Source: a virus (lineage: Duplodnaviria > Caudoviricetes). Taken from it: DNA of 29,370 nucleotides. Position 1 is the first letter of the stretch, and each line of letters begins with the position of its first letter. Below are positions 14,613 through 18,648 of the stretch, piece after piece. The stretch spans positions 1-29,370 of the IMG/VR virus record IMGVR_UViG_3300028293_000021; one strand, written 5' to 3'. The notes beneath the pieces are model-generated. The model saw only the letters and a program-made list of their open reading frames with translations, had not been told where the DNA came from and searched no databases. The translations under genes and the position numbers were made by a program.

Positions 14613-14641
14613 AGTATATCCAAAGACGGATAATCATGCAA
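14613..14641 (-). promoter_or_regulatory. Sigma70-type early promoter TTGCAT-N17-TATACT
   Basis: -35 at 14641-14636, -10 at 14618-14613, exact 17-bp spacer, AT-rich upstream. Confidence 0.75.
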
Positions 14642-14664
14642 CCACAAATATCACCAACTGGATA
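14617..14664. promoter_or_regulatory. Operator pair TATCCaaagacGGATA (14617-14632) and TATCAccaactGGATA (14649-14664)
   Basis: Perfect and near-perfect TATCC-N6-GGATA palindromes, 32 bp apart, overlapping the early promoter. Confidence 0.75.
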
Positions 14665-14683
14665 TTTTTTAACATGGCCGTGC

Positions 14684-14905
14684 TTAGCCGGCGCGCCGAT
14701 GCGCGGTGAACGTGCGCGGTTGGCCCCAGAGGCCCGCCAGCCACTGATCGACCAGATCGGCCCGGTAGCGCGCCACCCGCCCCACGCGCGGCAGCAGCTC
14801 GCGCACGAACGGCAGCTTGCCCGTCCGTTTCAGTTCCTTGAACGTCGACGCGCTCATCTTCAGCCGCTGCTGAATCTCACGCGCGGTGTAACACGCGGCG
14901 CTCAT
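14684..14905 (-). CDS. Excisionase/recombination directionality factor-like HTH protein
   Basis: YTAREIQQRLKMSASTFKELKRTGKLP...RYRADLVDQW winged-HTH pattern; downstream of cro, near int. Confidence 0.75.
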   Translation of the reverse strand: MSAACYTAREIQQRLKMSASTFKELKRTGKLPFVRELLPRVGRVARYRADLVDQWLAGLWGQPRTFTAHRRAG

Positions 14906-15168
14906 ACCGTCGGCGCTCCCTCGACGGCCGGCACCACCACGGGCTCAGCCTTCACGCGGCGCCGCTTCTTGACGCGCGGCGGTGGCCCGAATTGAATCGT
15001 GTTCGGATCGACCCCGAGCGCCTTCGCGAGCGCGACGACGGTGAGATGCGACGGGCGCGCCTGGCTGTTCCGCTCGAGGCGCGAGATCGAGTTTTGGGCA
15101 ATCTTGCTTTTCTTTTGCAGGTCGTCCTGCGTCCAGCCGCGCCGTTTCCGCAGCGTCCGTAGATACAT
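14902..15168 (-). CDS. Cro-like XRE HTH regulator
   Basis: LRTLRKRRGWTQDDL...IAQNSISRLER...LAKALGV; GAGGAGGG RBS; divergent from the repressor. Confidence 0.88.
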   Translation of the reverse strand: MYLRTLRKRRGWTQDDLQKKSKIAQNSISRLERNSQARPSHLTVVALAKALGVDPNTIQFGPPPRVKKRRRVKAEPVVVPAVEGAPTV

Positions 15169-15198
15169 CCCCCATCCCTCCTCGGTCGAGCTGGCTCA

Positions 15199-15297
15199 TT
15201 TATCCAGTTCGTGCTGCCAGATGTCAAACTTTACAGGATTCCCTAAGGATTTTCGTTGCATCGCAGACACTCGTACGGCATTATCCGAAATCGGCTA
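15199..15297. promoter_or_regulatory. cro/repressor divergent promoter region with operators at 15201-15216 and 15282-15297
   Basis: Leftward TTGACA (15227-15222)-N17-GATAAA; rightward TTGCAT (15256-15261)-N17-CATTAT; sites TATCCagttcgTGCTG and TATCCgaaatcGGCTA overlap each -10. Confidence 0.65.
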
Positions 15298-15308
15298 TCC
15301 TTTCACCT

Positions 15309-15893
15309 ATGAAATGGGCCGAAATTCGTGATCACTTCGTGCGGCTGCACGCCTTCGCCAAGGTGGCCGGCGTGACACAGCAGGCCGTCGCGAGCCGCGG
15401 CGGGATTGCGGGACAAAACAGCGTGTCACGGTTGATCAGAAACATGAAGCGGGGTCCGACCGTGGAGATTTTTGTAAGCGCCGTCGAGGGGCTTGGGCTG
15501 ACGCTTGTGGAGTTTTTCGAGACGCTCGAGAGCAACAGCGTGCCCGTCTCATGGTTGGAGGAGCAGGGGAGCGCGGCGCAACTCAAGGCGTGGCGCAATG
15601 CCGCGATCCATCACCAGCCCGTCGATTCCCTGGTGTCGAGATCCGCCCCTGAAGATCGACATCCGCCGCCGCAGACAACGAAGCGTGGGAGGGCAAATGT
15701 CCGTCGTCCAATTCGCACGGCGCCTCTCGTCGATGAAAAACTCAAAGAAGAGCTCGACCAACTGTTCCGGACGATGTTCGCTGAACACTTTGAGTCGCTA
15801 TTTCGCAGAATTTCGAAAAATGACCCGCGAGATGGAACGGCTGCTGCTCGACCATCCGCCGCACGGACATCAGGTCGTCGTCGCCACTCGTAA
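15309..15893 (+). CDS. CI-like XRE repressor 1 (no S24 peptidase domain evident)
   Basis: VTQQAVASRGGIAGQNSVSRLIRN..RGPTVEIFV.AVEGLG....EFF; divergent from cro. Confidence 0.85.
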   Translation: MKWAEIRDHFVRLHAFAKVAGVTQQAVASRGGIAGQNSVSRLIRNMKRGPTVEIFVSAVEGLGLTLVEFFETLESNSVPVSWLEEQGSAAQLKAWRNAAIHHQPVDSLVSRSAPEDRHPPPQTTKRGRANVRRPIRTAPLVDEKLKEELDQLFRTMFAEHFESLFRRISKNDPRDGTAAARPSAARTSGRRRHS

Positions 15894-16041
15894 CGCGATC
15901 AAGCTGGCGCGCGTCCACGTCGCCATGCTGAAAGCGGCGCCCCGCGTCGCCACCACTCGACCCCCCCGAACCCTCACCGCAGAACAGGAGAAACAACACG
16001 ATGCCGAAAAAACTCAAAGGCGTCCGTCGTCAAGGCAGTAA
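15697..16041 (+). CDS. Possible overprinted 114-aa ORF overlapping repressor 3' end and int start
   Basis: GGGAGGG SD just before ATG 15697; MSVVQFARRL...; covers the otherwise non-coding 15894-16000 gap. Confidence 0.45.
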   Translation: MSVVQFARRLSSMKNSKKSSTNCSGRCSLNTLSRYFAEFRKMTREMERLLLDHPPHGHQVVVATRNAIKLARVHVAMLKAAPRVATTRPPRTLTAEQEKQHDAEKTQRRPSSRQ

Positions 16042-17236: not shown

Positions 17237-17273
17237 AAAACGCCCGGTTTCATTGACGAAACCGGGCGTTGTT
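17237..17273. terminator. Probable bidirectional intrinsic terminator
   Basis: 13-bp stem AACGCCCGGTTTC / GAAACCGGGCGTT with 6-nt loop, A-tract left and TTGTT right, between convergent int/tRNA fragment and repressor 2. Confidence 0.8.
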
Positions 17274-17396
17274 GCGTACGGGTGATCGGGCCGGATCAGG
17301 GCGGTTGTAGCCGGGAGCGCGGGTCAAAAGTTGCGAGAAAGTTGCGAGAAAAGTTGCGAGCGCGTGAAGCCTTTGTACTGCCACCGGCACGGAGCG

Positions 17397-17846
17397 TCAG
17401 CGGCGCCGCTTGTGGCGCTCCGGCCCAGGCGTCGCGGGCGGGCTCGCGTAGCCGCGGCGACACGCGCGGATGATCGAGCGTCCGATCTCGAGCGCGAGCT
17501 GTCGGTCGGGATCATCGGGCGGCACGTTCGTGTGCCGGCCACGATCACGCCCGCTGATCGGCGCGGACGGTGCCCACGACGGCTCGACATCTGGTTGCGG
17601 GAACTGGTGCTCGATGCCGGCGAAGAACTCAGACGGCGCGACCCGTAGGCCGAGGAGCGCCCGAACGAACATTTCGACCGAGGGGCCGAGCTTATCGTTC
17701 TTGAGCAGGCGAGAGAGACTGTTCTGTCCGGCGCCTTCGGCAATCCCGCCAAGCCGCGCGACTTCCTGTTGCGTCGCGCCCTGTTGCTTCAACTCAGCGA
17801 ACCGCCGCGCGTAATCGGCGCGGATCGCGTCCCAGACATCACCCAT
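17397..17846 (-). CDS. CI-like XRE repressor 2, paralogue of repressor 1
   Basis: WDAIRADY.RRFA..K..GATQQEVARLGGIAEGAGQNSLSRLLKN.KLGPSVEMFVRALLGL....SEFF aligns closely with repressor 1. Confidence 0.85.
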   Translation of the reverse strand: MGDVWDAIRADYARRFAELKQQGATQQEVARLGGIAEGAGQNSLSRLLKNDKLGPSVEMFVRALLGLRVAPSEFFAGIEHQFPQPDVEPSWAPSAPISGRDRGRHTNVPPDDPDRQLALEIGRSIIRACRRGYASPPATPGPERHKRRR

Positions 17847-17856
17847 GCGCTAGGCG

Positions 17857-17968
17857 AGTATAGCTAGTGGCGGATACTCACTTTTTTAGTGGTTTGCGGA
17901 TACTGAGGCATCGTTGTTTTGCCTGAATTTCTGCGCCTCATCCTTGGTAAAGTATTGCGATAGGGATG
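17857..17968. promoter_or_regulatory. Second divergent promoter region with GGATA-type operators (17861-17876, 17887-17902)
   Basis: Leftward TATACT at 17862-17857; GCGGATACT occurs twice; rightward extended -10 TGgTAAAGT at 17945-17953. Confidence 0.55.
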
Positions 17969-17987
17969 GGCGACGGAGGCGTCCCTG

Positions 17988-18185
17988 ATGAAACCGATCT
18001 ATCGCCTGGACCTGACCTCGCACCAGCGAGCGGCGCTGCTAACCGTGATCAGCGGCTACATCACCAGTCCGGACGCCGTTGAGGTGTCAATCGACGCCGC
18101 GACCGGCGAGGAGATCCAGATCGGCGATCTCCTCGCGCTCGTGCTGAACCTGAATCCGATCCGGGACCAAGCGAAGGACCGATGA
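17988..18185 (+). CDS. Small hypothetical protein
   Basis: GGAGG RBS; ATGA coupling to the next gene. Confidence 0.7.
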   Translation: MKPIYRLDLTSHQRAALLTVISGYITSPDAVEVSIDAATGEEIQIGDLLALVLNLNPIRDQAKDR

Positions 18186-18379
18186 TCTTCCGCATCCGCT
18201 TCGAACAGAAGGGCGGGCATGTGCATTGCCGGCTCTTTCAGGCGACCGCGCCAGGGCGGACGTGGCAGAAAAACGGCGACATCACATTCGATGAGGCGGG
18301 GTGGATCGCGTTCGTCGAGCTGCTGCACGCCCGCGTCGAGTTCGTACCCGAAGACGTCGACCCATCGTCAGCGCCGTAG
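18182..18379 (+). CDS. Small hypothetical protein
   Basis: [27 protein letters not shown]. Confidence 0.7.
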
Positions 18380-18390
18380 AGGATTTACAC

Positions 18391-18648
18391 ATGGCACGAC
18401 ACACCGACGACGATATCGGCTTCGACGAGGGCGGCCAGCCCGTCATGCGGGGTGAAGACGCGGGGGCGCGGCAGGCGGCGATTGTCGAGCACCCGGAGGC
18501 GACGCCGATCCTCGTCGTCGCGAAGCTGCATGGCGAGATTGGGGTGCGCTGCTACGGCCCGCCCAGTCTCGACACGGCAGACGTGCTTGATCACATCGCC
18601 GCCACGTATCGCAAGGCCGTCCTCGCGAGCCGGCCGAAGACGGTGTAG
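18391..18648 (+). CDS. Small hypothetical protein
   Basis: AGAGGA RBS before ATG 18391 ([11 protein letters not shown]). Confidence 0.7.

Follow-up and report, generated by a model that had tools for sequence, protein, structure and literature searches.

Paralogous repressors and a shared operator-like palindrome at two divergent switches flanking attP in a phage family likely to infect soil Acidobacteriota

The subject of this report is a repressor locus in the linear virus record IMGVR_UViG_3300028293_000021 (29,370 bases, rated 76% complete), referred to at its full length as the window. Two genes for paralogous helix-turn-helix (HTH) repressors, rep1 on the + strand and rep2 on the − strand, converge there on an integrase gene, int, and its attP core, and the same palindrome recurs at the control regions of both. 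The duplicated switch around attP appears, on sequence evidence alone, to be a variant of multi-locus phage immunity. The reading we prefer, to which we give a probability of about 0.5, is that an operon of rep1, a gene overprinted upon it, and int would establish lysogeny and then silence itself, while Rep2 would maintain repression without integrase.

Rep1 (15309..15893, +; 194 residues) comprises an XRE-like HTH domain (residues 1-78), a linker, a C-terminal helix and a basic tail; Rep2 (17846-17397, −; 149 residues) has a paralogous HTH domain, a linker, one short C-terminal helix and a basic tail. A first-pass annotation, made by a model from the letters of the window, had recognised them as paralogues converging on int-attP, and pairwise alignment bears this out, at these same coordinates, with 38 of 75 residues alike (51% identity, E 1e-19). 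Profile-profile comparison restricts the homology to the first ~80 residues; the C-terminal parts are non-homologous. Divergent from rep1, as annotated, are a Cro-like XRE gene that heads the early lytic operon (14902..15168, −; Pfam HTH_3, E 4.6e-14, and alignment) and an excisionase-like (xis-like) HTH_17 gene (14684..14905, −; Pfam E 1.6e-6; phrog_66), and divergent from rep2 are three small open reading frames (ORFs), here termed cargo, which match no Pfam or PHROG family. The recognition-helix motif said to be common to Cro and the repressors is indeed shared, being QNSISRL in Cro, QNSVSRL in Rep1 and QNSLSRL in Rep2; the Cro and repressor profiles align with 98% probability, and the Gln and Ser of helix 3 are invariant across both the rep1 and rep2 groups. 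Searches of Pfam and PHROGs returned only HTH matches for either repressor and gave neither S24 nor any additional Pfam domain, in keeping with the earlier statement that neither carries an autocleavage domain; even the HTH_3 scores, 19.1 bits for Rep1 and 14.4 for Rep2, are below the curated cut-off of 23.

The structural model of Rep2 (mean predicted local confidence, pLDDT, 81.7) shows a five-helix HTH fold, with helices at 2-21, 26-32, 40-49, 57-66 and 71-81 (pLDDT 81-96), plus one C-terminal helix. Among solved structures, the folds closest to it belong to XRE controller proteins, none with an E value better than 0.039, and a sequence search of the PDB with the repressor HTH family gave no match. 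Ratios of nonsynonymous to synonymous substitution, 0.12-0.54 for eight rep2 pairs and 0.10-0.38 for nine rep1 pairs with synonymous sites near saturation, indicate that the HTH domains of both genes are under purifying selection. The HTH family amounts to 229 clusters at E up to 0.001, and has no match among INPHARED cultured phages or 401 genomes of the candidate host class. In its tree no phage's two copies are sisters, and the window Rep2 clusters with four other Rep2 proteins (support 99/98). The tree has four label changes, and a single origin of rep2 is neither demonstrated nor, by the approximately unbiased test, rejected (p 0.70); not rejected either, despite the 99/98 grouping, is a sister relationship of the window's Rep1 and Rep2 (p 0.16).

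The evidence for a common specificity lies in the control regions. GGATA sites at the locus are half-sites of a palindrome, TATCC-N6-GGATA, which with up to two mismatches occurs six times in the 29,370 bases, four of them in control regions of the repressor locus. One site (15282..15297, one mismatch) covers the predicted -10 of the rep1-overprint-int operon and another (17861..17876, two mismatches) that of rep2. The divergent promoters carry degenerate versions: the spacer of the predicted cro promoter (15201..15227, −; TTGACA at 15222-15227) holds one with three mismatches in the window and one mismatch in nine close relatives, and the predicted cargo promoter one at 17953..17968, again with three mismatches, reduced to one in four close relatives. 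A perfect palindrome (14617..14632) and a second site with one mismatch (14649..14664) share a promoter region upstream of the early gene that follows xis; a site following xis is present in six of ten relatives examined.

We scanned the 140 bases before each repressor gene, window included, leaving out two rep1 loci with fewer than 60 upstream bases. The palindrome, at up to two mismatches, precedes all 26 rep1 and all 15 rep2 genes, with 50 and 34 sites respectively against shuffle means of 2.7 and 1.5 and shuffle maxima of 8 and 5. The enrichment is limited to a spacer of six (85 sites, against 2-17 for other spacers). Sites lie about -27 to -32 from each repressor start, over a TATTAT/TATACT-like element, and further sites adjoin the TTGACA-like element of the divergent promoter; these promoter elements were read by eye from the upstream sequences, since a sigma-70 scan gave none. 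Because the same sites stand at both switches, the duplication would have taken the whole switch and not the gene alone. A box for a host regulator was considered and dismissed: the candidate host genome has six palindrome matches against eight in the control, and no site upstream of host lexA or recA. A search with LexA-box patterns found nothing at the switches of the window and 11 loci. Both repressors probably bind TATCC-N6-GGATA, and the palindrome common to both switches makes cross-regulation by the two likely. To this extent the same-specificity twin switches proposed by the first-pass annotation are supported; the heterodimers it also envisaged are not shown, and the C-termini are non-homologous.

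The layout cro|rep1-int-att-rep2 is not peculiar to the window. Relatives, numbered here with the prefix L, were gathered via rep1, a repressor alignment and a cro alignment, and duplicates merged. The suggested synteny recurs in 11 other phages (L001, L002, L004, L005, L009, L012, L015, L021, L090, L098 and L099), three of which are rated complete: the L009 and L099 records have terminal repeats and L005 is rated 100%. Eight (L001, L002, L004, L005, L012, L015, L098, L099) have the tRNA-Gly core of the window; L009, L021 and L090 have a different att core, which by eye we read as tRNA-Glu(TTC); the integrase of L009 shares ~31% identity with that of the window. In the 12 twins that have int, 2.2-3.3 kb separate the two repressor starts, while in a further twin, L045, the distance is 1.0 kb with no int-attP between. 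A scan anchored on cro covered 22 contigs, 13 of them previously collected, so that it is not independent; it found 12 twins, two rep2-only, one rep1-only, one without a family repressor, two with an unrelated HTH switch and four ending too early. The nine new contigs among these are three twins, one rep1-only, one repressor-less, two unrelated and two ending early. Scans anchored on integrase and on xis had too low a sensitivity.

A chimera of two phages joined at attP is ruled out by the layout in the 11 other phages together with spanning contigs. The contig check covered four of nine listed runs: in each of runs X1 and X2 a single contig reproduces 14000-18250 exactly, though these may be the window's own source, and a 963-nt contig of run X3 (17144-18106) bridges the int end, attP and rep2.

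Between the two repressor genes there are consistent differences beyond the C-termini. Spanning the 3' half of rep1 in its +1 frame, and absent from the first-pass annotation, is an overprinted gene of 114 codons (15697..16041, +) with a Shine-Dalgarno sequence, GGGAGG; it overlaps the start of int. An ORF of at least 60 codons in this frame, with ATG and Shine-Dalgarno and running past the rep1 stop, is present in 23 of 26 rep1 genes; by the same criteria there is none in the +2 frame of the 26 and one among 15 rep2 genes. We do not count an open +1 frame by itself, for seven of the 15 rep2 genes have one. A profile also finds the overprint in L090, L098, L099 and L102. Its products have an N-terminal M-x-x-x-R-F-P consensus and a helical W...ME...P...L segment, at a mean column identity of 24%, and the window product is modelled as a helical hairpin (residues 29-80; pLDDT >90 over 31-80). 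No Pfam or PHROG family is common to more than one of 21 members, the fold has no match in BFVD and only matches under 0.9 in the Atlas, and there is no likeness to Rep2. Gene calling recorded the overprint as a gene on five contigs, and the 194-residue Rep1 is not in that gene collection as such.

Two further asymmetries concern operators and tails. The site at the rep1 promoter is nearer the perfect palindrome than that of rep2 in 12 of 13 twins, with one tie and none reversed, a post hoc ranking that assumes a perfect palindrome binds best and is drawn from related phages. A terminal Ala is found in 14 of 26 Rep1 and in none of 15 Rep2 proteins (among 150 family representatives, in 34 of 90 long and nine of 60 short proteins), and Rep1 tails of the RRRPRKTA kind bear a loose likeness to RRKKAI, the basic-then-Ala degron of MuA (PMC12723719).

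Natural single-copy variants suggest what can be dispensed with. Compared with the twin L009, to which they are 70-78% identical in cro, int and att-rep2, the two assemblies L018/L019 have 27 bases in place of ~540 that hold rep1 and the overprint, and a perfect operator stands before int. In L016, L031/L032, L036 and L039 a single short gene of rep2 type lies immediately upstream of cro, with no int between (the L032 and L039 contigs are too short to show cargo), and all these rep2-only phages have the same palindromes. Relatives with rep1 only are L020, L028/L029, L064 and L102; the last, whose record is 99% complete, has a single repressor match yet retains a site at the cargo promoter, whereas in L064, L029 and L020 the sequence ahead of the first cargo gene yielded none. 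Since rep1-only and rep2-only relatives keep the same sites, one repressor, either copy, is likely to suffice for the circuit.

Two other variants may be recorded here. The rep1 gene of L005 (6508-6657) has an in-frame deletion of ~28 codons that takes away the last part of the recognition helix together with the helix after it, rep2 being intact; seen in one assembly only, it may be a natural mutant or an assembly error. L101 (5197-6947) has int, the att core and, at the promoter of its cargo, a perfect operator; its record, 42% complete, contains no family repressor, whether between cro and cargo or outside that interval.

The att site itself bears on what integration could change. The attP core (17163..17211, +), which follows int (16001..17164, +; PF00589; phrog_1), is the 3' 49 nt of a tRNA-Gly(CCC) gene, and its sole exact match in genome_contigs is such a gene in an Acidobacteriota metagenome-assembled genome (MAG). 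From this single match we take soil Acidobacteriota to be the likely host of the phage family. Five direct repeats containing AGTTGCGA (17041..17359; at 17041, 17107, 17326, 17338 and 17349) are likely arm-type sites for the integrase; they lie on both sides of the core, as expected for an intact attP. A 13-bp hairpin between core and rep2 (17239..17270) folds on both strands (z about -3.9; none of 200 shuffles equally stable) and is likely to be a bidirectional terminator that ends the int and rep2 transcripts, although the promoter and terminator scan reported only one unrelated hairpin and not this one. The core is outside rep1 (ends 15893) and rep2 (ends 17397) and inside no ORF or promoter. 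Integration would put rep2 and cargo beside the restored tRNA gene and cro|rep1-int at the opposite prophage end, a consequence that the first-pass annotation drew correctly from the geometry of the tRNA core, but from the positions just given it cuts no gene or promoter, and the sole change is in the distance between switches. Rewiring by integration would thus need looping.

We can now set out the preferred reading. What the sequence shows is a single run of rep1, overprint and int on one strand, with rep2 on its own, and a palindrome that covers the predicted -10 elements of both repressor genes and recurs in the promoter regions of cro and cargo, which diverge from them. On infection, transcription of the rep1-overprint-int operon would yield repressor and integrase together; as repressor rises it would fill the near-perfect site at the rep1 promoter first and shut off the operon, integrase included. 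The weaker rep2 site would allow Rep2 expression to continue at a self-limited level, sufficient to keep the cro and cargo operons off from the other prophage end, and a single repressor of either kind could run the circuit, as the single-copy relatives suggest. Induction would not be by CI-type self-cleavage, and the overprinted protein is the best candidate for its input. A fuller version, in which an unstable, int-coupled establishment repressor is paired with a stable maintenance repressor, the overprint replaces CI self-cleavage as a decision or induction factor (antirepressor or protease adaptor), and integration retunes the circuit by separating the switches, is a tentative extension that we think rather doubtful.

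Several observations weigh against this reading. Beside the provisos attached to the operator ranking, the window Rep1 ends in Ser and does not fit a degron-like tail. Cro, whose helix is the same and which all these phages possess, could alone maintain the palindromes, and L101 keeps a perfect site where no family repressor was seen; the Rep2 helices drift in several twins (L004, L015, L090, L099), and the site at the window's own cro promoter is among the degenerate ones. A separate maintenance gene is dispensable, as the phages with rep1 alone show, and the records of rep2-only phages are fragmentary (34-73% complete for those with a rating). Finally, no integrated copy was found in the 401 genomes of the candidate host class or in genome_contigs, and no attL or attR among the contig loose ends displayed.

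Simple redundancy, in which interchangeable modules of the same specificity make the switch more robust or widen superinfection immunity and neither copy has a fixed role of its own, would account for the existence of rep1-only and rep2-only relatives with the same palindromes and for the damaged Rep1 HTH of L005 beside an intact rep2. It would not be expected to keep group differences (in the C-termini, the overprint, the terminal Ala and the one-directional operator ranking) across phages whose integrases are ~31% identical, and we regard it as possible but doubtful. Unlikely, in our estimation, is a Rep2 whose specificity drifts and which regulates the cargo promoter locally, Rep1 being the immunity repressor and Rep1 and Cro together keeping the palindromes. 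Such a role would suit the constant position of Rep2 divergent from variable cargo, the greater variation of its helix and wing than those of Rep1, and the persistence of palindromes in L101; but L018/L019 have lost rep1 from its place with int, att, operators and rep2 remaining, rep2 is the only repressor beside cro in three further phages (flank read or inferred), and the family segment NDKLGPSVE is better kept in the window Rep2 than in the window Rep1.

The two remaining explanations start from the first-pass annotation. It had pointed to P22 and suggested that the small operon may encode antirepressors; on the P22 pattern, Rep2 would repress a cargo antirepressor able to inactivate Rep1. 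The anatomy is P22-like, in that a repressor and an operon divergent from it are found at each of two loci, and since there is no self-cleavage domain an antirepressor is needed somewhere; the cargo, however, is not conserved among twins, persists where rep1 or rep2 is absent, includes predicted secreted or superinfection-exclusion (Sie)-like proteins in L001, L005 and L009, and yielded no match to the antirepressor families of Pfam or PHROGs among 52 cargo genes (45 behind rep2, and seven from L029 and L009 between repressor and att) or 30 more proteins. Such an arrangement we consider very improbable, though family searches could miss small antirepressors of an unfamiliar kind. It had also proposed that the circuit differs between free and integrated DNA; in the form that Rep1/Rep2 oligomers loop the switches together across the 2.5 kb of int-attP in free DNA and integration breaks the loop, this is the least credible of the explanations weighed here. 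The 2.2-3.3 kb between repressor starts in the twins with int would suit it, λ CI loops left and right operators across its immunity region (bioRxiv 2021.04.19.439022), and the shared HTH resembles dimeric domains of C.Esp1396I type, at the E values given above; against it are the location of attP outside any ORF or promoter, the hairpin that would insulate rep2, the L045 twin with no int-attP between its repressor genes, and the retention of both sites in single-repressor phages. A difference between the two states is thus not shown.

Comparison with known systems helps to place the locus. The C2 and Mnt repressors of P22 differ in fold and operator. P22, P1, P7 and N15 have multi-locus immunity, that of P22 consisting of immC, with c2, and immI, with mnt, arc and ant, each encoding a repressor and a divergent operon (PMC6550527). 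The likeness to P22 is one of anatomy alone: here the repressors are paralogous, share one palindrome and flank attP, and the second locus has no recognisable antirepressor. With λ the locus has in common a divergent repressor/cro pair with shared operator sites between them, one type of operator used at two early control regions that lie a few kb from each other, and predicted leader-poor repressor transcripts under their own operator; it differs in that each control region has its own repressor gene, that int and attP lie between the control regions and integration therefore separates them, that there is no S24 self-cleavage domain, and that there are one or two sites per promoter, not three. 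In integration-dependent immunity of the BPs type, attP is inside rep (PMC3694055; PMC4557955). Common to that type and our locus are a rep-int run divergent from cro and a tRNA-type attachment site (PMC3694055; PMC4557955). The viral repressor of the BPs type bears an ssrA-like C-terminal tag; the terminal Ala of 14 of 26 Rep1 and none of 15 Rep2 proteins may be a counterpart, although the window Rep1 ends in Ser. Here, by contrast, attP is outside both repressor genes, the two forms are two genes and not two states of one, and where the BPs type has int, rep and cro only there are also an xis-like HTH_17 gene and arm-type repeats. The immX region of phage 16-3, a second immunity locus besides c, is reported to have overlapping cistrons (PMC10460002); likened by description only, it shares overlapping reading frames in an immunity region, whereas in our locus it is the main HTH repressor gene that is overlapped, by a frame that continues into int. 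C.Esp1396I, ClgR and DdrO are the nearest solved folds for the Rep2 model (template modelling score by target up to 0.77), at E 0.039 or above and 13-24% identity; the first helix of Rep2 is longer than theirs and the C-termini are unrelated. On paralogous or duplicated repressors around attP we found nothing pertinent in the open literature, older subscription papers on phage immunity being outside this scope.

Known multi-locus immunity systems use unrelated regulators, whereas here a whole switch has been duplicated around attP and conserved. The twin, rep1-only, rep2-only and repressor-less relatives form a natural series for two questions: how complex switches evolve from rep-int-cro units, and by what means a phage stops its integrase while keeping immunity if repressor and integrase are transcribed together. 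The operator, both predicted promoters and the overprint hidden from gene callers are defined to the base, and so are testable without the uncultured host; they provide a first handle on lysogeny control in phages likely to infect soil Acidobacteriota.

The cargo ORFs of the window (17988-18185, 18182-18379 and 18391-18648, all +) form a variable operon; the second has homologues in L015, L028/L029 and L054. Among relatives the genes divergent from rep2 range from one for a predicted secreted protein to eight small ORFs, and cargo matches comprise HTH_17 (two), a Sie-like/tRNA_anti-like protein (one), DUF7694, DUF6166, CxxCxxCC and unknown PHROGs. Taken together, these genes resemble an accessory operon that would be expressed early and controlled by repressor. 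In six phages the first cargo gene is a conserved one of ~160 codons (L016 4291-4821, L036 4412-4843, L045 1287-1616, L064 5853-6389, L101 4703-5197, L102 4141-4617) whose product has an AAANLS motif, noted by eye, and no Pfam match; it is a candidate for the operon's real function. A second excisionase-like (HTH_17) gene lies in the rep2-divergent operons of L019 (3262-3471) and L021 (915-1130). Small extra genes are found in L009 (6937-7552), between int and att core, and in L090 (4212-4389), between core and rep2, so the segment between the repressors likewise takes cargo.

Some minor observations follow. A family cro-like gene lies downstream of an unrelated repressor/cro pair, with no operators, in L088 (6992-7228) and L091 (3476-3658), and appears to be a captured gene; no site of one mismatch or fewer is near either of the two loci with a cro-like gene behind an unrelated switch. 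An Rfam search gave nothing real. Window positions 15204-15225, in the cro-promoter spacer, are 82% complementary over 22 nt to 17586-17607 inside rep2, possibly by chance; the stretch coincides with the degenerate window operator, where relatives have a one-mismatch site. The usual tRNA T-loop pattern is TTCGA; in the target tRNA-Gly(CCC) it is TCCGATT, in the window core, in L052 (4001-4074) and in the MAG. A 393-codon gene without a convincing Pfam or PHROG match (18682-19863, −) ends the late operon, a position that suggests a lysis enzyme. A small gene opposing the late-gene direction (20182-20373, +) encodes a FDRAHRLEHE motif that is seen by eye also in cargo genes of L012, L064 and L102.

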